A DNA stretch of 17,302 bases from Deinococcaceae bacterium (GCA_040256005.1 JBDZWC010000061.1:1-17302); one strand, 5' to 3'; shown: positions 4,884-17,302, numbered from the stretch's first letter. Notes: generated from the letters alone by a model not told the origin. A program made the numbers and translations.

Positions 4884-5375
4884 ATGGTCCACGCCGTGTA
4901 CCCCGGCAGCTTCGACCCCTTGCACAACGGACATGTCGACATCATCAGACGCGCCGCGGGCATCTACGGCAGCCTGACCGTCGCGGTCCTGGACAACCCG
5001 CTGAAGGCCGGCGCGCTGCTCTCCACACAGGAGCGCGTGGCCATCATCCAGGACGTCGTCGCGGGCATGAAGGACGTCAAGGTCGACTCGTTCGACGGCC
5101 TGTTGGCCGAGTACGCCGGGCAGATCGGCGCCAAGGTGATCGTGAAGGGCCTCAGGGCGATATCCGACTTCGAGTACGAGCTCCAGATGGCTCACCTCAA
5201 CCGGCAGCTCAACCCCAACGTGGAGACCACGTTCATCATGACGGCTACGCGCTGGTCCTACGTGTCCAGCTCACGGGTCAAGGAGATCGCCAAGTACGGC
5301 GCCGACGTGTCCAAGCTGGTGCCGCGCGCCACGCTGCACAAGCTCAAGGAGCGCTTCGCTCAGGCGACGGTCTGA
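4884..5375 (+). CDS. coaD: Pantetheine-phosphate adenylyltransferase
   Basis: AVYPGSFDPLHNGHVDII (HxGH), KGLRAISDFEYELQMA and SSS.VKEIA motifs. Start moved from 4803 to ATG 4884, where the family homology begins. Confidence 0.97.
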   Translation: MVHAVYPGSFDPLHNGHVDIIRRAAGIYGSLTVAVLDNPLKAGALLSTQERVAIIQDVVAGMKDVKVDSFDGLLAEYAGQIGAKVIVKGLRAISDFEYELQMAHLNRQLNPNVETTFIMTATRWSYVSSSRVKEIAKYGADVSKLVPRATLHKLKERFAQATV

Positions 5376-6367
5376 TGGGCCCGCTCTACCGTGCCATGGC
5401 CGCCGACGGCGGCATCAGGGTCGTGGCTGCCGACACCACGGACGTGGTGCGCGAGGCCGTGATCCGCCAGGGAGCCAGCCCGACCGCCGGGGCCGCGACC
5501 GGGCGCACCATGACGGCCGCGCTGCTGCTGAGCCACGTGCTCCTCAAGTCGCCCCGCGACCGCGTCACCGTGCGCCTCGACGGCGGCGGGCCGCTCGGGC
5601 GGGTCACGGCCGAAGCGGGCCTGGATCACACGGTGCGCGGCTACTCGCAGAACCCTGAAGTCGTGCTCCCGCTGCGCACCGACGGGAAGCTCGACGTGGG
5701 TGGGGCGGTAGGCACCCAGGGGGAGATCCGTGTCGTGCGCTCACACGCCCCGTACGGCGACCCTTACACGGGCAGCATCGCCCTGACCTCAGGCGAGGTC
5801 GCCGAGGACGTCGCCACCTACCTGGCGGTGTCCGAGCAGATACCCTCCGCGGTGCTGCTGGGCGTGCACTTCGACGGCAGCGGACGGGTGCAGGCGGCCG
5901 GCGGCGTGATCCTGCAGGCGCTGCCTGACGCCGACCCCGCGGCGCTGACGCTGCTGGAGGCGAACGTCAGGGAGCTGGGACAGCTCACGGAGGCCATGCG
6001 GCGGTCCCCGCTCATCGCTGTCGTCGAGCAGGAGCTGTGCTGGGGCCTCGACTTCGATCTCATGACGGACGAGCCGTTGCAGGTGAGGTTCGAGTGTCGT
6101 TGCACCGACGAGAGGGCTCTCCAGGCGCTGGCGTTCTTCACCCCCGAGGAGAGGCGCGAGATGATCGAGGAGGACGGCGGCGCCGAGGTCGTGTGCCACT
6201 GGTGCGGCGAGCGCCGCTGGATCGGCGGGGAGAAGATCGCGACCCTGCAGGGAGACGAGGTCCGCTGCCCCGAGTGCGGCACGCTGTGGCACAGGGAGGG
6301 GCAGCCGGCGATCATGCGCCAGGGTGAGCTGTGCTCGTGCGGCCGGCCCGTGGAGCTGCCCGACTGA
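5375..6367 (+). CDS. hslO: Hsp33 redox-regulated chaperone with an extra C-terminal Cys-rich extension
   Basis: SPTA..A.GR..TA, GGPLG....A...VRGY, GEVAED...YL..SEQIPSA, AAGG...Q.LP and the zinc switch CRC...CHWC. TGATG coupling to coaD. Confidence 0.95.
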   Translation: MGPLYRAMAADGGIRVVAADTTDVVREAVIRQGASPTAGAATGRTMTAALLLSHVLLKSPRDRVTVRLDGGGPLGRVTAEAGLDHTVRGYSQNPEVVLPLRTDGKLDVGGAVGTQGEIRVVRSHAPYGDPYTGSIALTSGEVAEDVATYLAVSEQIPSAVLLGVHFDGSGRVQAAGGVILQALPDADPAALTLLEANVRELGQLTEAMRRSPLIAVVEQELCWGLDFDLMTDEPLQVRFECRCTDERALQALAFFTPEERREMIEEDGGAEVVCHWCGERRWIGGEKIATLQGDEVRCPECGTLWHREGQPAIMRQGELCSCGRPVELPD

Positions 6368-7882: not shown

Positions 7883-7969
7883 CTCAAGAAGCCTCCGGTG
7901 CAACGCGGGGTCGAGCGGCCGCCATGGCGGCTCTACCGATACGACGGTACCCGCCGCCGCGCCGCCACG

Positions 7970-7975
7970 ATTCTA
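7970..7975 (-). promoter_or_regulatory. Candidate -10 box (TAGAAT) of plsY
   Basis: The minus strand reads cggTAGAATcgtgg, one mismatch from TATAAT, about 90 nt upstream of the plsY start. Confidence 0.5.
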
Positions 7976-8004
7976 CCGATGCGCCAGAACCGGCACTCAG
8001 CGGT

Positions 8005-8010
8005 TAGCAT
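8005..8010 (+). promoter_or_regulatory. Candidate -10 box (TAGCAT) for the leaderless rhomboid gene
   Basis: TAnnnT 7 nt before the in-frame GTG 8018. Confidence 0.45.
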
Positions 8011-8017
8011 CGCGGAC

Positions 8018-9589
8018 GTGACTCCGGCCGCCCTGGCACTCGTGTTGCTCTCTCTAGCGGGGGTCTCCGCCCTGCGTTGGGCCACCAGGCTCGCGCCACT
8101 GCTCACCGAGCTGCCCGCCAAGACCCTGATCGCGACATTCCTGGCGGTGCTCGCACTGGCCGGCGAGCTGGGATGGGCGGCGCCGGCCCGTGCGCTGACG
8201 GTGGCGGCCATCGTGCTGGCGCCCCTCTACGTGTTCGGCCCTGTCGCTCTGCTCGCCCTCGTGCGTGCCGGTCGGGCGCGTTGGGCAGCCGCGGGCATGC
8301 GACTGCTCTACTGGACGCCTCTCGGGAGGCGCGCCCTGGGCCGGTGGCTGGCGGTGGCGGCGCTTCACGAGGGCGACCCCGCCGGGGCGCTGGCGGTGGC
8401 ACCCGAGCCCGACGACCTGCTGGTCGCCCAGGCGGACCTGTTGCGAGGGAACTGGGCCGGCGCGGTCGAGCACGCCCGCAGGGTGGTGCAGGGTCCGTAC
8501 CCGGACGACGCCAAGGCCGTAGCCCGAGAGCTCGCCGTGGCGGCGCACCTCGAGCTGGGAGAGCTCGACGCCGCTGCCGCCGAGGCGCGGCTGTTGACGA
8601 ACGCGTTCGACCAACGCCGCGATGGGCCCATGAAGTACCGGGCCGTGACCTTGGCCAACGCGCGCGTGGCCGCGGCGAACGGGGACCTGATGCGGGTGAG
8701 GGAACTGCTCTCTCAGCCCTTGGCCGGCGTGCGTCCCGCGACGCTCTTCGCCGTGCTGGGCCGCGCCGCGGACAGGGCGGGCCAGGAGGAACTGGCCGTG
8801 GAGTCGTGGCGCAACGCCTTCGCCGACGCACGGGGCGTTCTCAAGGAGCGCTACGCCGAGGTACTGCGCTCCCGGGGGGCGGCGCCGGCCGCCACGGCGC
8901 CATCCGCCGTGCCCGTCGCGACGTACGCGCTCGTGGGGGCGATCGTCGTCGCCTACCTGGCTCAGAGCCTGCTCAACCGTGCACTGCCGCCCGTGCGCCT
9001 CATCGGCGTCTACCTCGACCCGAGCGACTTCCTTCTGGCCTACGCGCATGGGATCCCCGGCGTGCCGGCACAGGACGCGTGGTGGCGCTACCTCACGTAC
9101 GGGTTCCTGCACGCCAACCTGGTGCACATCGCGTTCAACGCCTGGGTGCTGCTGGACCTGGGTAGGGTCGTGGAGAGAAGACGCGGCTGGGGCGACGTCG
9201 TGGCGTCTTTCGTGGCCGGGGTCGCCGGCGGGGCGCTGCTCACGAGCGTCCTGGAGGCCGGCCGACCCATGCTGCTCGTCGGCGCCTCGGGCGGCGTCTT
9301 CGGGGTCGCGGCGGCTCTGATGCTCGACGCGCTGGCCCGCCGCTCGCGCACCGACATGGCCCTACTGCGCAGCATGGCCACGTTCCTGGCACTGAACCTG
9401 GTGTTCTCGCTGTTGCCGGGGGTCTCGCTCTGGGGCCACGTGGGTGGCCTGTTGGCGGGTGCGGCCTACATGGTCTTGCGTCGGGCGGTGCCGTGGAAGG
9501 TGGCCGGCCACGTGTTCGGCGCGTTGGGGGTCGGGGTGCTGGCGTTGGCGTTGGGGACGGCGCTGGTGACGGTAGTGCCGCTGCTGTGA
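8018..9589 (+). CDS. Rhomboid family intramembrane serine protease with N-terminal TM segments and a helical TPR-like region
   Basis: C-terminal WRYLTYGFLHANLVHIAFN, GASGG (catalytic Ser) and GHVGG (catalytic His). The start is uncertain: GTG 8018 is preferred, ATG 7979 is possible. Confidence 0.88.
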   Translation: MTPAALALVLLSLAGVSALRWATRLAPLLTELPAKTLIATFLAVLALAGELGWAAPARALTVAAIVLAPLYVFGPVALLALVRAGRARWAAAGMRLLYWTPLGRRALGRWLAVAALHEGDPAGALAVAPEPDDLLVAQADLLRGNWAGAVEHARRVVQGPYPDDAKAVARELAVAAHLELGELDAAAAEARLLTNAFDQRRDGPMKYRAVTLANARVAAANGDLMRVRELLSQPLAGVRPATLFAVLGRAADRAGQEELAVESWRNAFADARGVLKERYAEVLRSRGAAPAATAPSAVPVATYALVGAIVVAYLAQSLLNRALPPVRLIGVYLDPSDFLLAYAHGIPGVPAQDAWWRYLTYGFLHANLVHIAFNAWVLLDLGRVVERRRGWGDVVASFVAGVAGGALLTSVLEAGRPMLLVGASGGVFGVAAALMLDALARRSRTDMALLRSMATFLALNLVFSLLPGVSLWGHVGGLLAGAAYMVLRRAVPWKVAGHVFGALGVGVLALALGTALVTVVPLL

Positions 9590-9591
9590 CG

Positions 9592-9652
9592 TATCATCTG
9601 AGGTCATAGCGTTAGCTCGGAAGGCCGTTCTGGACCGGTGGGTCCCCGGAGG
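9592..9652 (+). promoter_or_regulatory. Candidate -10 (TATCAT 9592-9597) and SD (GGAGG 9648-9652) of the acyl-CoA dehydrogenase gene
   Basis: Near-consensus -10 just after the rhomboid stop; GGAGG 6 nt before GTG 9659. Confidence 0.5.
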
Positions 9653-9658
9653 GTAGAC

Positions 9659-11475
<1,817 letters not shown>

Positions 11476-11479
<4 letters not shown>

Positions 11480-12024
11480 AGCGGCTTGAACCGCTCGAAG
11501 GTCTCGCCGCAACCGGCGCAGGTGCGGATCTCGCGACACAGGGTGGAGCCGAAGGCGTTGCGGAGACGGGTGTCGGGGTGATCGCACCGCGGGCAACGGA
11601 CCGGGGCGTCCAGGGCGATCTCGATGAGCCCGTCGTGGCGGCCGGGCGGCGCGATCCCGAACTCGCGCAGCTTCGCGCGCACCTCGTCGGTCATGTCATC
11701 GGTGGTCCAGGGCGGGGAGAGCACGGTCTTGACGCTCACCTCGACGCCGATTACGCGCACCGCCTCGCCCACCGCGCGCTCGATCTCGCGCAGTGCAGGA
11801 CAGGCCGAGAAGGTGGGGGTGATCGTCACCTCGACCAGCGGCCCGGTCGAGCCGGCGAGCAGCGTCACCGACCTGACGACCCCCAGCTCGACCACGTCGA
11901 TGACGGGGATCTCGGGGTCCTTGACCGCCTTCAACGCGGTCCATACGCGTGGCAGGAGCGTGGCGGCCTCGCCCCCTATCGCCTCGGCGCGGGCTCGCGG
12001 CCGGCCGCCGCTGAGCGTCACCAT
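11476..12024 (-). CDS. paaD: 1,2-phenylacetyl-CoA epoxidase subunit PaaD (called PaaJ in some nomenclatures); DUF59 plus Cys ribbon
   Basis: V.DPEIPV....LG.V, TPTFSACPA, PPWTTD and CPRC...FGSTLC....C..C.E.F..FK motifs. Confidence 0.93.
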
Positions 12025-12776
12025 GCCACCGCCTCGGGGTCCTGGCGGGCCACCTCCTGCATGGTCGCCAGCAGCTCACGGCGGTGCTCTCTCACCACGT
12101 CTCGCTCGGCAGGGGCCGGGTCGGGATCGTGCCCCGGGTCGAGCTCGGCGGCCGCCAGGGCCGTGCGTGCCCTGTCGATGACGGCGCCGGACAGCGAGGC
12201 CCAGTCCCGCAGCACGTTGGCGTCCATGAGGAGCTGATCGCCGGGTAGTGGGGCGACCAGCCCGGCATAGAGCGGCCACAGCTCCTCGAGCGCGGCCAGC
12301 GACCGCCGGCGCGACTCGTCAGTACCGAGGCCCAACCTCTTCACCCACAGTCCGGTGTGGCGCAGGTGGAACAGCTCCTCCCGACGCGCCTTGTCCGCGG
12401 CCTCGGCCAGTGGCGCATGGGCGCTGCCCGCCAGGCGCGCCAGTGCCTCGGCCTCGTAGGTATCGAACAGGAACTGCCGCAGCAGCGTGAAGGCCCAGTC
12501 GCCGCGCGGTAGCTCGACGAAGCCGCAACTGAGGAAGCCTTGCGGCGCCCGCCCGAACGCCAGGGAGTCGGGGTCGGAGCCATCGAGCTGCGAGCGCACG
12601 CCGTACCACAGCACCGCGTGCCCGATCTCGTCCTGCGCGAGGTTCGCTAGCGCGATGTCCTCCTCGAGCAGCGGTCCATGTCCCGTCCATTCGGAGTCCC
12701 GATGCCCCAGCAGCAGCTCGTCGTCAGCCATGGCCGTGAGCCGCGAGATCAGCGCGCCGGTCACCTGCTCGTTCAC
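12018..12776 (-). CDS. paaC: 1,2-phenylacetyl-CoA epoxidase subunit PaaC
   Basis: ADDEL.LGHR.SEW..HGP.LEEDIA.AN.A.D..G.A, ELP.GDWA....RQ and W..RLG.GT.ES..R motifs. GTG 12776 overlaps the paaB stop (GTGA). Confidence 0.95.
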   Translation of the reverse strand: MNEQVTGALISRLTAMADDELLLGHRDSEWTGHGPLLEEDIALANLAQDEIGHAVLWYGVRSQLDGSDPDSLAFGRAPQGFLSCGFVELPRGDWAFTLLRQFLFDTYEAEALARLAGSAHAPLAEAADKARREELFHLRHTGLWVKRLGLGTDESRRRSLAALEELWPLYAGLVAPLPGDQLLMDANVLRDWASLSGAVIDRARTALAAAELDPGHDPDPAPAERDVVREHRRELLATMQEVARQDPEAVAW

Positions 12777-13288
12777 CCGGCCGCCCCTTCGTTTCGCTTG
12801 GCGGCGACGGTGCCGTACTGCGACTGCTGCTTGTACGTCTTGTCCTTGGCGGGCTCGAACCAGGACGCCGCTGCATCCGGGTCCGTGGCATGTACGTCGT
12901 TCGCGTCCACCACCCACCACGCCAGGCCGGGCTCAGCGCCCGCTCCGGCGAGCGCCACGGCCAGCGCTTCGCTTGGCCCGGCCGCGCGCACGTCCGTGAG
13001 GTGGTCGACGAACGTCATGGAGCGCCTGTGGCTGGCCTTGCGGAAGACGTGGTACGTGCCCTCGTTCCCGCTCGCAACGGGCGCCCGCGGCGCCTCCGCA
13101 GCCAGCTCCTCGGCCGTGCGCCCGTAGATCCTGTCGGCACGCACCACCCACATCGAGATCGCCGCTGGCCGCCGGCCGAAGACGTGGCGGGCGTTCAGGA
13201 GAGCGTGCTCGGCGTCGGCGCCGTGAACGCTGCCCACCGCCTGGTGCGGCTTGCTGGGCGCGTCCTGTTTGAACACCTCCCAGCGCAT
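12773..13288 (-). CDS. paaB: 1,2-phenylacetyl-CoA epoxidase subunit PaaB, long two-repeat form
   Basis: WEVF...H..VGSVH..D.E.AL..AR..F.RR....S.WVV and C-terminal F.PA..K.Y motifs; lies between paaA and paaC; GGAGG upstream. Confidence 0.88.
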   Translation of the reverse strand: MRWEVFKQDAPSKPHQAVGSVHGADAEHALLNARHVFGRRPAAISMWVVRADRIYGRTAEELAAEAPRAPVASGNEGTYHVFRKASHRRSMTFVDHLTDVRAAGPSEALAVALAGAGAEPGLAWWVVDANDVHATDPDAAASWFEPAKDKTYKQQSQYGTVAAKRNEGAAG

Positions 13289-14278
13289 CTAGGCCTCCAC
13301 CGCAGCGCGCGCGGTAGCGATCTCGTGCCTGGCGGCGTACGCCTCTAGGGCCTCCCGTACCCAGGCGCCGTCGGCGTGCGCCCGGTTGCGCGCCGCCAGC
13401 CGCTCGGTGTTGCAGGGACCGTCTCCCTTGACGACGCGCCAGAACTCGTCCCAATCGATGGGGCCGTGGACCCAGTGGCCGGTCTTGGCGTCGAAGCGCA
13501 TGTCGGGGTCCGGGATCCTCAGGCCGGCCTCCTGGAGCTCGGGAACGTGCTCGTCGATGAACTCCTGCCGCACCTCGTCGTTCGTCTTCGTCTTGATGCC
13601 CCACCTCACGAGCAGTGGGGTGTTGGGTGAGTCGGAGTCGTGCGGCCCGAGCATCTGGACCGACGGCCACCACCAGCGGTCCAGCGCGTCCTGGGCCATG
13701 CGCCGTTGCGCCGGCGTGCCCTGGGCGTAGGTGATGACCATCTCCTTGCCCTGCTTGTGGTGGAACGTCTCCTCCGAGCAGATCCTGACCATGGCCCGCG
13801 AGTAGGGCCCGTACGAGCACTGCGCGAGCATGAGCTGGTTCTTGATGGCCGCGCCGTCTACGAGCCAGCCGATCATGCCGACGTCGGCCCAGGTGAGGGT
13901 GGGGTAGTTGAAGACGCTCGAGTACTTCGCCTTGCCGGTCAGCAGGGCGTCCACCAGGTCGTCCCGGCTCGCGCCCAGCGTCTCGGCGGCGTGATAGAGG
14001 TACTGGCCGTGCCCGGCCTCGTCCTGCACCTTGGCGATCAGGACGAGCTTGCGTCGCAGGCTGGGAGCCCGAGTTATCCAGGCGCCCTCCGGCAGCATCC
14101 CCACGACCTCGCTGTGCGCGTGCTGCGAGATCATCCTGATCAGCTGCCGCCGGTACTCGTCCGGCATCCAGTCGCCGGGCTCGATCTTCTCGCCGGCCGC
14201 GATGCGTGCCTCGAACCTCGCCAGCAGGTCGGCTTCGGCCGCCGGCGTCGCAGCTGGGCCATCCGTCACGGGGCTCAC
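13289..14278 (-). CDS. paaA: 1,2-phenylacetyl-CoA epoxidase catalytic diiron subunit PaaA
   Basis: [55 protein letters not shown] and CSYGPY.RAM.RIC.EE.FH motifs. Confidence 0.98.
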
Positions 14279-14886
14279 TCCTTCCCACCGGCCGCGGCGA
14301 GGTGCCGCGACCTGAGGCCGTCGAGCAACGTTCGTGCGTACGCTCGCGCCAACCGCTCAGGGTCCAGCGGTCCGGCGGCGTCGTACCACTGGTAGGAGAA
14401 GTTGAGGGCCGAGAGCACGATGAGCGTCGCCACTCCCGGGTCTTCGACCTGGAAGCTCCCGTCGGCGACGCCGTCCTCGACCGCGCGGCGGAACCGCTGC
14501 TGGTACTCGTCGCGCCGGGCCACCATCTCACGGCGGCGCTCCGTGGACAGGTGCACCCAGTCCTGGAAGAAGACGGCCGCGTGGTCGAGCTGCCTGAAGA
14601 TGACCCTCAGGTGGGCCGTGATCAGTCTCTCGAGGCGCTCTGCGGGCGGCAGGTCGTCAGGCACCTCGTCCGCGGCGGCGGTGAAGGCGGCTGCCGCCCT
14701 GTCCACGATCGCCCACAGCAGCTCCTCTTTGCCTTCGATGTGGGCGTAGAGGCTGCTGCCCCTCAGCTCCAACGCCTGCGCCAGTTCGCGCATACCCGTG
14801 GCGTGGTAGCCGCGCGAGCCGAAGAGCTCCCCCGCCGCTTTGAGTATCTCCTCGCGTCGGCCGGGCCGCAGGGCCTCCCTGGTCAT
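14275..14886 (-). CDS. paaR: TetR-family repressor of phenylacetate catabolism (PaaR type)
   Basis: TetR HTH ([21 protein letters not shown]......SLY.H..GKE.LL) and C-terminal 'LN..YQWY...G.L'. First gene of the paa operon, with a PaaR-consensus operator upstream. ATG 14886 is preferred over GTG 14901. Confidence 0.85.
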
Positions 14887-14892
14887 GCTCAG

Positions 14893-14898
14893 ATGGTA
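14893..14898 (-). promoter_or_regulatory. Candidate -10 box (TACCAT) for the leaderless paaR-paaABCD transcript
   Basis: The minus strand reads TACCAT-ctgagc-ATG (6-nt spacer). Confidence 0.6.
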
Positions 14899-14899
14899 C

Positions 14900-14915
14900 A
14901 CGAACGACCGTTCGT
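14900..14915. promoter_or_regulatory. PaaR operator (inverted repeat ACGAACG-ac-CGTTCGT)
   Basis: Perfect 7-bp-arm inverted repeat. The core CGAACGACCGTTCG matches the Thermus thermophilus PaaR consensus CNAACGNNCGTTNG, recalled from the literature. Confidence 0.85.
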
Positions 14916-14934
14916 TAGTCCGATGCCGATGGTT

Positions 14935-14958
14935 TAGGATGGGCTACGAGTTCGGAGG
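14935..14958 (+). promoter_or_regulatory. Candidate -10 (TAGGAT 14935-14940) and SD (GGAGG 14954-14958) of the E1 alpha/beta operon
   Basis: TAnnnT followed by GGAGG 3 nt before ATG 14962. The implied -35 position (~14911-14917) overlaps the PaaR operator. Confidence 0.55.
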
Positions 14959-14961
14959 ACC

Positions 14962-15993
14962 ATGGACGACACCGTCAGGTACGTCAGCGAGAGCGGCGAG
15001 CGGCTCTCGGAGCTGCCGTTCGGTGTGGACGAGTTGGTGAGCGCTTACCGTGCCATGCGCCGCGCGCGGCACTTCGATGACAGGGCCGTGACCCTCCAGC
15101 GTCAGGGCAGGCTGGGCGTCTACCCGCTGTTCCGTGGCCAGGAGGCCGCCCAGGTGGGTGCGGCGCTGGCGCTCTCCGAGGGCGACTGGCTCGTCCCCAC
15201 CTACAGGGAGACCGCCGCCGCGATCACACACGGGATGCCGCTGTCCACGGCGCTCCTCTACTGGCGTGCTCATCCCGCCGGTTGGTCGTTCCCCGAGGAC
15301 CTGCGCATCCTGCCGTTCTACGTTCCCATCGCCACGCAGTTGCCGCACGCCGTGGGTCTGGCGCACGCCTCCGCCTTGCGCCGCGAAGGAGCTGTCGTCC
15401 TGGCCTTCGTGGGCGACGGCGGCACGTCGGAGGGCGACGCACACGAGGCACTCAACTTCGCTGCCGTGTTCATGGCGCCGGTCGTGTTCGTCGTCCAGAA
15501 CAACGGCTGGGCGATCAGCGTGCCTACCGAGAGGCAGATGCGCAACACGCGCATCGTCGACCGCGCCGTCGGCTACGGCATGCCGGGCGTCAGGGTCGAC
15601 GGCAACGACCTGGTGGCGATGCTGCAGGTGATGCGGGAGGCTGTCGACAGGGCGCGGACCGGCGGGGGCCCGACGCTCGTCGAGGCCATGACCTACCGCC
15701 TAGCCCCGCACACCACCAGCGACGACCCCGGCCGGTACCGGGACGGCGCTCAGACGGAAGAGCGCGAGCGCTCCGAGCCGGTGTCGCGCCTGCGTGCGCT
15801 GCTGACGTCACAGGGGGCGTGGTCCGAGGAGGCCGAGCAGGAGCTGCTGGAGGAGCTAAAGGCGGAGTTCGACGAGGCTGTCGCTCAGGCCGACGCGGCC
15901 CCTGAGCCGACGCCGGGATCCATCGTCGAGCACGTCTACGCCTCCATGGGCCCCGATCAGTCGCGCGCGTGGGAGGCACTCGGTGGCGAGTGA
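14962..15993 (+). CDS. pdhA: ThDP-dependent 2-oxoacid dehydrogenase E1 alpha subunit (PdhA/BkdA family)
   Basis: [23 protein letters not shown], ThDP motif GDG.TSEGD.HE..NFA......VF..QNN..AIS and [12 protein letters not shown]. The family is certain, but the substrate (pyruvate, branched-chain or aromatic) is not. Confidence 0.88.
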
Positions 15994-17008
15994 GGCACCC
16001 GCCGGCGCCGTTCAGGAGAACCCTGCGGTGGCCCAGCTGACGATGGTTCAGGCCATCAACCAGGCGCTGGACCAGGCTCTGGCGTCCGACGATCGGGTCC
16101 TGGTGTTCGGCGAGGACGTCGGCGTCATGGGCGGCGTCTTCAGGGCCACGGACGGCCTTCGTGACAGGCACGGCGCGCACCGCGTGTACGACACGCCGCT
16201 CGCCGAGTCCGGCATCATGGGCTACGGCGTCGGCTTGGCGTTGGCCGGCATGCGGCCAGTGGCCGAGATCCAGTTCGCCGGTTTCCTGTACCCAGCCCTA
16301 GACCAAGTGCTCTCGCACGTGGGCCGCTACCGGCACCGGACCCGCGGGCGGTTCACCGTGCCGCTGGTCGTGCGCGCGGCGTACGGGGGAGGGGTGCACA
16401 CGCCCGAGCAGCACGCCGACTCCCCCGAGGCGATCCTCGCTCAAGCACCGGGCGTCAAGGTCGTCGTTCCTGCGGGGCCCGAGCGGGCCAAGGGCCTGCT
16501 CTTGGCGGCGATCGACGACCCCGACCCCGTGTTCTTCCTCGAGGCGATCAAGCTCTACCGCTCCAGCCGCGAACCCGTTCCCGCCGAGCCGTATCGCCAC
16601 GCGATCGGCAAGGCGCGCGTGGTGCGTGAGGGTGACGCCCTCACGCTGGTCTGCTACGGCGGGATGGTCGAGGTGTGCCTGAAGGCCGCGGACGTGGCGG
16701 CACGCGACGGCGTCAGCCTCGAGGTCGTCGACGTCGAGACGCTGGTGCCGTTCGACGAGGAGACCGTGCTGGGTTCGGTCAGGAAGACGGGGAGAGCTGT
16801 CGTCGTGCACGAGGCCGCCCGTACCGGAGGCTTCGGCGGCGAGATCGCCGCGCGCATCGCCGAGCACGCGTTCTACGACCTGCTGGCGCCGGTCGCCCGC
16901 GTAGCGGGTTGGGACGCACCCTACCCGCCCTTCACCTCGGTCGAGCACCACTACCGGCCGGACGCGGCGAGGGTGCTCGCAGCGGTGCGCCAGGCCCTGT
17001 TGTCCTGA
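15983..17008 (+). CDS. pdhB: 2-oxoacid dehydrogenase E1 beta subunit (PdhB/BkdB family)
   Basis: A.N.AL.......V...[33 protein letters not shown]....E.H..SPE, DPV.F.E and SV.KTGR..VVHEA motifs. GGAGG upstream; 11-nt overlap with the alpha gene. Confidence 0.9.
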
Positions 17009-17187: not shown

Positions 17188-17302
17188 GTGAACAAGGACG
17201 TGGCGGTTAGCGAGAAGCTCGACAAGGAACGGGCCCAGGCCATCAACACCGCGGTCTCTCAGATCGAGAGGCAGTTCGGTAAGGGCGCGATCATGCGTTT
17301 GG
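17188..17302 (+). CDS. recA: Recombinase RecA, 5' fragment running off the window; not in the ORF track
   Basis: GTG 17188 after GGAGG translates to MNKDVAVSEKLDKERAQAINTAVSQIERQFGKGAIMRL, the classic RecA 'A..QIE..FGKG..M.L' N-terminus with a Deinococcus-like extension. Confidence 0.93.
   Translation, partial: MNKDVAVSEKLDKERAQAINTAVSQIERQFGKGAIMRL

Follow-up and report, generated by a model that had tools for sequence, protein, structure and literature searches.

A paa-linked E1 pair without an adjacent E2 is a candidate phenylpyruvate dehydrogenase in Deinococcota

Indolepyruvate:ferredoxin oxidoreductase (IOR) turns phenylpyruvate into phenylacetyl-CoA without the ligase PaaK. In the usual scheme, aerobes take phenylalanine to phenylacetyl-CoA by way of a decarboxylase or an amine oxidase, followed by an aldehyde dehydrogenase (ALDH) and PaaK, as drawn for Streptomyces coelicolor (PMC9239090). 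PglB/C of Streptomyces pristinaespiralis are suggested to convert phenylpyruvate to phenylacetyl-CoA (PMC7089894) and are named phenylpyruvate dehydrogenase (PMC10685826). S. coelicolor bkdA2B2C2 is described as branched-chain (PMC13033682), bkd clusters are treated as branched-chain, with silencing of one lowering yield by 48% and of the other by 8% (PMC9151331), and paaN-bkdA synteny is mentioned as a possible link, no mechanism being given there (PMC13118837). Neither phenylpyruvate nor pyruvate is mentioned in a survey of this pathway from 2026 (PMC13186573). Here, we describe an E1 alpha/beta gene pair (14962–15993 and 15983–17008, plus strand) in a 17,302-nucleotide stretch of DNA from a Deinococcaceae bacterium (GCA_040256005.1, JBDZWC010000061.1:1-17302), referred to below as the window, which is contig C240 of a 3.1-Mb genome, G000 (96.8% complete, 250 contigs). 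A full-text literature search, with most subscription journals and supplements outside its reach, found no assignment of this Deinococcota pair to phenylpyruvate use. Sequence comparisons make it very probable that the E1 acts on phenylpyruvate to feed the paa pathway, and they favour, with somewhat less assurance, a phenylpyruvate dehydrogenase E1 that would use a shared branched-chain (Bkd) E2 and lead straight to phenylacetyl-CoA without PaaK.

Both genes are intact. E1 alpha (343 aa) carries the thiamine diphosphate (ThDP) motif GDGGTSEGD...NN, His250 and Val53, and is preceded by a ribosome-binding site, GGAGG, at 14954–14958 on the plus strand. E1 beta (341 aa) starts at a GTG that overlaps the alpha stop, with GGGAGG upstream, and has its catalytic histidine within PEQH. 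A preliminary description of this DNA presented the genes as an E1 pair lacking an adjacent E2 or E3 and followed by recA, and this is confirmed: the recA start at 17188 shows that no E2 follows E1 beta, and no E2 or E3 gene lies within the window. The pair was also said to diverge from paaR-ABCD across a PaaR operator, in agreement with the TetR regulator and paaA–paaD genes found on the opposite strand and with a predicted operator at 14901–14914 that matches the PaaR consensus exactly.

The pair is not the only E1 of pyruvate dehydrogenase (PDH) or branched-chain 2-oxoacid dehydrogenase (BCKDH) type in its genome, a possibility that the preliminary description had raised against itself. G000 encodes AceE with an E2 at C221, Bkd alpha/beta with an E2 at C216, a 2-oxoglutarate dehydrogenase-type E2 with an E3 at C41, and a second E3 at C55, for a total of three E2 domains and two E3s. 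The paa-linked pair is a spare E1, the genome already having AceE and a Bkd E1, and as all three E2s are tied to other complexes, any E2-dependent role of the spare E1 needs a shared core. E2 matches in 18 other genomes checked number three in 13, four in 4 and two in 1. Six members of the Deinococcota clade (L098, L107 and L208–L211, of which L098 and L208 are near copies) form E1-thioesterase-E2 units, four of them beside paaK or paaA; their thioesterase has matches in PDB 2CWZ and in the G000 gene that follows paaK. The E2 of these units is 43–44% identical to Bkd E2 and 35–37% identical to AceF, and of the four genomes that have the E1 and no Bkd E1 match, three carry the E2-bearing form and the fourth is 91% complete. 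The resemblance to Bkd E2, together with the occurrence of the E2-bearing form where Bkd E1 is missing, suggests Bkd E2 as the partner, which in G000 would likely be the one at C216. The docking segment of E1 beta resembles its Thermus Bkd counterpart.

The distribution of the pair across the phylum follows that of paaA. We searched 200 other Deinococcota genomes, in which the best E1 matches split into those at or below 1e-104 and those at or above 1e-68; G188 and G193 (1e-91 and 1e-93) were excluded from all tables. Family names (f1–f4, Trueperaceae, Deinococcaceae, Thermaceae and Marinithermaceae) were inferred from homologue names, those of close homologues being Trueperaceae, and from near-identity to Thermus PDB entries. 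Among 198 genomes, E1 and paaA are both present in 146 and both absent in 41, with 10 genomes having only E1 and one having only paaA (phi 0.85), so that paaA is absent from 41 of the 42 E1-less genomes. The corresponding counts in Trueperaceae are 15 with both, 24 with neither, one with E1 only and none with paaA only. The unrelated catabolic gene hutU, taken as a control since hpaE tracks paa and is unsuited to that purpose, gives a phi of 0.26 and occurs in 12 of the 24 Trueperaceae that lack E1.

PaaK follows paaA less completely. The 147 paaA-positive genomes include 146 with E1 and 134 with paaK: 133 have both, 13 have E1 without paaK, and one (G037) has paaK without E1. A looser paaK search (E 1e-3) of five of the 13 paaK-less genomes, three of them single contigs and two of these searched save for 16–24 kb, gave either no match or remote ligases (1e-36 and 1e-41). 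The preliminary description, which reported no paaK ligase, holds for the window and not for the genome, where paaK lies at C231 (579 bits, below the 646 cut-off like most of the phylum). The proposed bypass of PaaK is supported by the 13 paaK-less genomes with paaA, all of which keep the E1, and by clade members that have an E2 of their own; in G000 the bypass would be optional. At C231 (1677–15690), paaH-like, paaJ-like, paaK and 2CWZ-type thioesterase genes adjoin hpa genes (HpaE match), and two scanned stretches of this contig contain no PaaR box. The presence of hpaE in 5 of the 10 genomes with E1 and no paaA, alongside 4HPPD in 0 of 12 genomes, hints at tyrosine as the source of a second substrate.

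We surveyed other routes from phenylpyruvate as well. PF20169, which we take as a marker of fused-form IOR, was found in 0 of 19 genomes. G000 has no phenylpyruvate decarboxylase, its two PF02776 proteins being an acetolactate synthase and, by our own reading, an IolD-like protein. One KorA-type oxoacid oxidoreductase is encoded in G000. In another genome (G179), a divergent paa cluster (L218; PaaA 46%) occurs with an ALDH, an enoyl-CoA hydratase-like gene and a thioesterase, and this genome is without paaK and paaZ.

Gene neighbourhoods were compared at 60 of about 156 orthologue loci, selected so as to be widely spread and to lie on long contigs. The paa linkage that the preliminary description had looked for in orthologues was found: paaA lies within 9 kb of E1 in 11 of 16 Trueperaceae loci and in 2 of 20 Deinococcaceae loci, and PaaR boxes precede E1 in 15 of the 60. 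In Thermaceae, paaZ is near E1 in 9 of 21 loci, and an aminotransferase gene adjoins E1 in 19 of 21 (and in 1 of 3 Marinithermaceae loci). This aminotransferase matches PDB 1V2D at 690 bits, which is the Thermus thermophilus glutamine:phenylpyruvate aminotransferase (GlnAT; PMC6698932). The three distinct neighbourhoods, with paaA, GlnAT and paaZ, point to phenylalanine. An E2 stands beside E1 in only 1 of the 60 loci.

The PaaR consensus CNAACGNNCGTTNG, as printed in PMC6651687, has an exact match, CGAACGACCGTTCG (14901–14914), in the 75-bp spacer between paaR and the E1 genes, with an overlapping one-mismatch copy at 14905–14918. A −10-like hexamer of paaR (TACCAT, 14893–14898, minus strand) stands 2 nt from this predicted operator, and one for the E1 genes (TAGGAT, 14935–14940, plus strand) stands 20 nt after it, both read by eye. 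As TACCAT is 6 nt before the paaR ATG, the paaR transcript is likely leaderless, and the −35 position of the E1 promoter would overlap the operator. A sigma-70 scan of the junction returned no full promoter and no terminator. An RNA-run contig of X1 reproduces the paaA-paaR-E1 junction (14065–16338), though it may be DNA. The number of boxes is unremarkable, since two window matches at one mismatch were reached in 14 of 200 shuffles and the genome holds 2 perfect sites where about 3 are expected; the operator is therefore significant by place and conservation rather than by rarity. The chance of a perfect site in this spacer is about 7e-5, and 6 of 16 Trueperaceae loci carry a box at the corresponding position. 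The genome's second exact box (C52:10495) falls within a coding sequence and was set aside. Counting within 400 bp upstream of the estimated E1 alpha start, 15 of the 60 loci have a perfect box. The 1.1 Mb scanned holds 24 perfect sites including these 15, and the others mostly precede paaR, paaZ or ALDH genes. Six of the 15 adjoin paaR and seven are Deinococcus loci without any tested paa gene, while in L065 and L068 the box is 26 bp before the E1 start and paaZ is several kb downstream. In a set of 30 loci chosen by another motif, four of which overlap the 60, 17 have a perfect box. As boxes also occur where no paaR or paa gene is near, the box travels with E1 and not only with paaR.

A second candidate for control is confined to Deinococcaceae. 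A leader open reading frame (ORF) of 17–41 codons ending in RLLNQRRAP-stop lies upstream of E1 alpha in this family (L224–L253; L083, L087–L093, L095–L097, L100 and L102) and is not found in the window. The RLLNQRRAP-stop sequence is present as a single copy in 52 of 92 Deinococcaceae genomes and in none of the other families, with the reversed control giving 0. All 52 lie 84–333 bp before the E1 alpha match, and they show synonymous changes and either TGA or TAA as the stop. RAP-stop is among the query motifs used for arrest peptides (PMC10987492), and the leader is a candidate ribosome-stalling regulator.

The pair is a member of the alpha2beta2 2-oxoacid dehydrogenase E1 family, with the ThDP motif GDG-x-NN in alpha and E1 alpha and beta folds. 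The segments LGVYPLF and FYVPIATQ, cited in the preliminary description as a sign of closeness to Bkd-type over Bacillus PdhA-type sequences, are present, but the closeness itself does not hold: E1 alpha scores 252 bits against Geobacillus stearothermophilus PdhA versus 217 against Thermus BCKDH, passes the TIGR03181 profile and lacks the GRQMP loop found in 6 of 6 aligned Bkd paralogues. For E1 beta, the scores are 344 bits against PdhB and 317 against Thermus BCKDH, and the best PDB matches of the pair are G. stearothermophilus PdhA/PdhB. The features of branched-chain E1s (GRQMP loop, Phe at position 66, grouping with PDB 1UM9) are missing from the pair. It is likewise not an operonic PDH, with E2 and E3 in its operon and serving as the PDH of the cell, given that 59 of 60 loci are without E2 and AceE is present, and not a PglB/PglC pair, as there are no pgl genes of a pglA-E cluster in the window and the clade is separate. 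Alpha His250 and Asp254/255 are kept in 60 of 60 loci and the beta PEQH histidine in 20 of 20. In the G. stearothermophilus enzyme, it is stated that the equivalent residues, alpha His271 and beta His128, serve the reductive acylation of the lipoyl group, and that the beta histidine is needed by E1s and not by every ThDP enzyme (PMC2663715). Alpha position 53 is Val in 60 of 60 loci, where all 6 Bkd paralogues have Phe, as does PdhA (Phe74). From work on 1UM9, this residue presumably lines the substrate pocket.

In a tree of concatenated alpha and beta sequences (29 rows), the Deinococcota group, including the E2-bearing members, has 100/99 support, and Bkd is separate. A single clade of Deinococcota and actinobacterial paa-linked E1s alone is rejected (AU p 1e-5), with only four other TIGR03181-type rows in the comparison, three of them long-branched. 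The paa link of these E1s has either two origins or one with a reversal, on a thin outgroup sampling. Relatives outside Deinococcota were sampled through plasmid matches and one PglB-type scan, which took in 23 of the 64 parts that make up the genome collection. Among the best 80 relatives of the PglB-type query, many of which are Streptomyces with one inherited gene order, 77 have their own E2 and 46 have paaZ or epoxidase genes no more than 9 kb away, a number that rises to 64 when paaH plus TetR or paaJ is counted. The site of position 53 is Val in 73 of 82 actinobacterial E1s, and the paa-linked ones group with L104, an E1 adjoining ilvBNC. As an observation in its own right, L126–L207 (Actinomycetota) are PglB-related E1 alpha/beta/E2 clusters that lie beside paa genes in most loci. 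They are probably of the S. coelicolor bkdA2B2C2 type, to which they were matched by gene order and SCO3833, and are possibly a second phenylpyruvate dehydrogenase family.

Three other functions have to be weighed against that of a phenylpyruvate dehydrogenase. Acting alone, the E1 could decarboxylate phenylpyruvate to phenylacetaldehyde, which an ALDH and PaaK would convert to phenylacetyl-CoA. The 59 loci without a neighbouring E2, the paaK of G000 and of most paaA genomes, and an ALDH gene before E1 in four loci would all fit such a route. The top or joint-top NCBIfam match of that ALDH is StyD phenylacetaldehyde dehydrogenase (553–561 bits, under the 850 cut-off and level with betaine-aldehyde dehydrogenase), and a 9/10 or 10/10 box precedes it in three of the four loci. 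However, this ALDH is found in only 12 of 201 genomes, G000 not among them (seven candidates scored per genome), 13 genomes combine paaA and E1 without paaK, clade members have their own E2, and the histidines of the lipoyl step are invariant; we regard a decarboxylase as unlikely. The same ALDH was considered as a substitute for PaaZ and ruled out, as three of the four ALDH-E1 genomes have paaZ. A Bkd isoenzyme with a broad range of hydrophobic 2-oxoacids (branched-chain, methionine-derived and aromatic), phenylpyruvate being one substrate among several, is suggested by the branched-chain description of the related actinobacterial bkdA2B2C2, by the grouping of L104, beside ilvBNC, with the actinobacterial E1s, by five genomes that have E1 without paaA and hpaE, and by the E2-bearing form, which could stand in where Bkd is missing. 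Yet G000, like most genomes, has a true Bkd E1 as well, the pair has no GRQMP loop, and tight tracking of paaA together with PaaR boxes would be unexpected for a generalist, which makes this quite unlikely.

Several observations weigh against a phenylpyruvate dehydrogenase, and some of them speak for the annotated function, a second PDH E1 like Bacillus PdhAB, with the paa link incidental or serving acetyl-CoA supply. E1 alpha passes TIGR03181, the profile of Bacillus-type PDH E1 alpha (438 versus a cut-off of 411), all source names shown for close homologues say PDH, and 12 of 21 Thermaceae loci have gap-pgk-tpiA, ending in tpiA, ahead of the GlnAT-E1 genes, a placement that suits PDH, so that the GlnAT link could be incidental. 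Nevertheless, AceE is present with its E2, TIGR03181 is also passed by actinobacterial E1s called bkd (L104, 443 bits; L151, 417 bits), 41 of 42 E1-less genomes lack paaA, boxes lie upstream of E1 even with no paa gene near, and Phe74 of PdhA is replaced by Val throughout; a second PDH E1 is accordingly highly improbable. Further points on the opposing side are the position of the phenylacetaldehyde-dehydrogenase-like ALDH before E1 in 4 of 20 Deinococcaceae loci, the genome with paa and no E1 (G037), and the five E1-positive genomes without paaA and hpaE. The genomes searched are kin and not independent samples, for which reason no p value is attached to the co-occurrence, and the joint loss of E1 and paaA in Trueperaceae can be one deletion. 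Control by PaaR, as proposed in the preliminary description, is suggested by the boxes and would not be general: 45 of the 60 loci lack a perfect box, including all of 11 Thermus-type loci (L071–L081), and the E1 gene is absent from the T. thermophilus PaaR regulon table. L045 and L048 are without both paaR and box. In G000 itself, paaK would make the bypass optional, a GlnAT orthologue is absent (best 35–37%), the KorA-type enzyme might be a side route for aromatic substrates, and paaZ is absent, as it is from 7 of 10 Trueperaceae genomes tested. The combination of paaABCD without paaZ occurs in G000, G161, G141, G171, G173, G186 and G167, one of which is a single contig.

A phenylpyruvate dehydrogenase would work as follows. 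Phenylalanine would be transaminated to phenylpyruvate, by the adjacent GlnAT orthologue in Thermaceae and by some other aminotransferase here. The E1 would form a ThDP adduct and acylate the lipoyl arm, as its conserved catalytic residues suggest, the E2 (likely that of Bkd at C216) would hand the phenylacetyl group to CoA, and a shared E3 would yield NADH. The phenylacetyl-CoA would supply the PaaABCD epoxidase and, if PaaR behaves as in the T. thermophilus papers and binds the box predicted here, would free the shared operator and induce transcription in both directions. 4-Hydroxyphenylpyruvate from tyrosine is a likely second substrate, whose product a thioesterase would release into the hpa pathway. 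More tentatively, and with rather less than even confidence in the whole, these parts may be joined into a dedicated class of aromatic 2-oxoacid dehydrogenases beside the pyruvate, 2-oxoglutarate, branched-chain and 2-oxoadipate enzymes. Such a class would be the main aerobic entry of phenylalanine (and tyrosine) in Deinococcota, would dock on the branched-chain E2 (one core, two E1s) and would make PaaK dispensable. Its control would fall to PaaR and, in Deinococcus, to the RLLNQRRAP-stop leader, which may stall ribosomes on an aromatic metabolite, and the paa-linked actinobacterial 'bkdA2' complexes would have arisen separately as a second version, from which PglB/C came. If a phenylpyruvate dehydrogenase is indeed encoded, about three quarters of the searched Deinococcota genomes take phenylalanine to phenylacetyl-CoA by one NAD-linked complex labelled PDH, and many actinomycetes may do likewise. 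A phylum-wide gene pair would be re-annotated, paa clusters without paaK would be explained, and the pair would offer a case of two E1s on one E2, a thermostable phenylpyruvate-to-CoA catalyst and a little-recognised aerobic route for phenylalanine use.

The remaining genes of the window surround this pair. The TetR regulator (14275–14886, minus strand, ATG at 14886) is a candidate PaaR by its position and because it is 48% identical to the regulator at the head of the paa cluster in a Thermus-type genome (L219). It is followed on the same strand by paaA, encoding a phenylacetyl-CoA epoxidase subunit (13289–14278), paaB (12773–13288), paaC (12018–12773) and paaD (11476–12024); paaA, paaC and paaD score over their NCBIfam cut-offs, PaaB reaches 84.6 against 85.45, and no paaE is present in the window. 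At 171 aa, PaaB is about twice the profile length with an apparent second PaaB-like half, and the same is seen in relatives. The recA start (17188–17302, plus strand) comprises 38 codons before the contig stops, too few for a family match, and its identity is backed by L045, in which the gene at the same place is RecA. A FadE-type acyl-CoA dehydrogenase gene (9638–11479; NF058590 over its cut-off) is convergent with paaD and is near E1 also in L044, L048, L057 and L058. Further away, Hsp33 (HslO; 5375–6367) has a C-terminal extension of about 35 residues with two further cysteine pairs, and a 563-aa membrane protein (7898–9589), with no NCBIfam match at 1e-8, shows by eye a rhomboid-like C-terminal part and a long N-terminal helical region.

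Among known systems, PglB/PglC are the closest in proposed function, being an E1 alpha/beta pair proposed for phenylpyruvate to phenylacetyl-CoA. A pgl-type cluster on a Streptomyces virginiae plasmid (L103) likewise lacks an E2 and has V-Y-P and P-x-A-T-Q in common with the window pair. In contrast to the latter, PglB/PglC are biosynthetic and belong to a nonribosomal peptide synthetase cluster; the identity to L103, a pgl-type homologue compared in place of PglB itself, is 44%. Outside the Deinococcota clade, a Haloferax mediterranei plasmid (L106:2609–8033) carries genes for an aminotransferase and a sodium-dependent transporter, followed by another E1 alpha/beta pair without E2. The actinobacterial bkdA2B2C2 type is similarly paa-adjacent with Val at the same site, but has its own E2 in 77 of 80 loci and is branched-chain in print. 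The G. stearothermophilus PDH E1 (PDB 1W85), with its PdhA/PdhB the closest solved structures, shares the short loop, the ThDP motif and the His271/His128 equivalents, whereas the window pair lies in an operon without E2/E3, has Val for Phe74, Tyr for Gln141, Val for Ile142 and Ala for beta Phe83, and has a host with AceE. The T. thermophilus branched-chain E1 (PDB 1UM9) agrees in fold and chemistry, and its Bkd E2 type is the likely partner, but it is a separate paralogue with 38% identity, the GRQMP loop and Phe66; L116 is a near-identical 1UM9 orthologue. Finally, IOR would share with the window pair the formation of phenylacetyl-CoA from phenylpyruvate, although it is an unrelated Fe-S enzyme.

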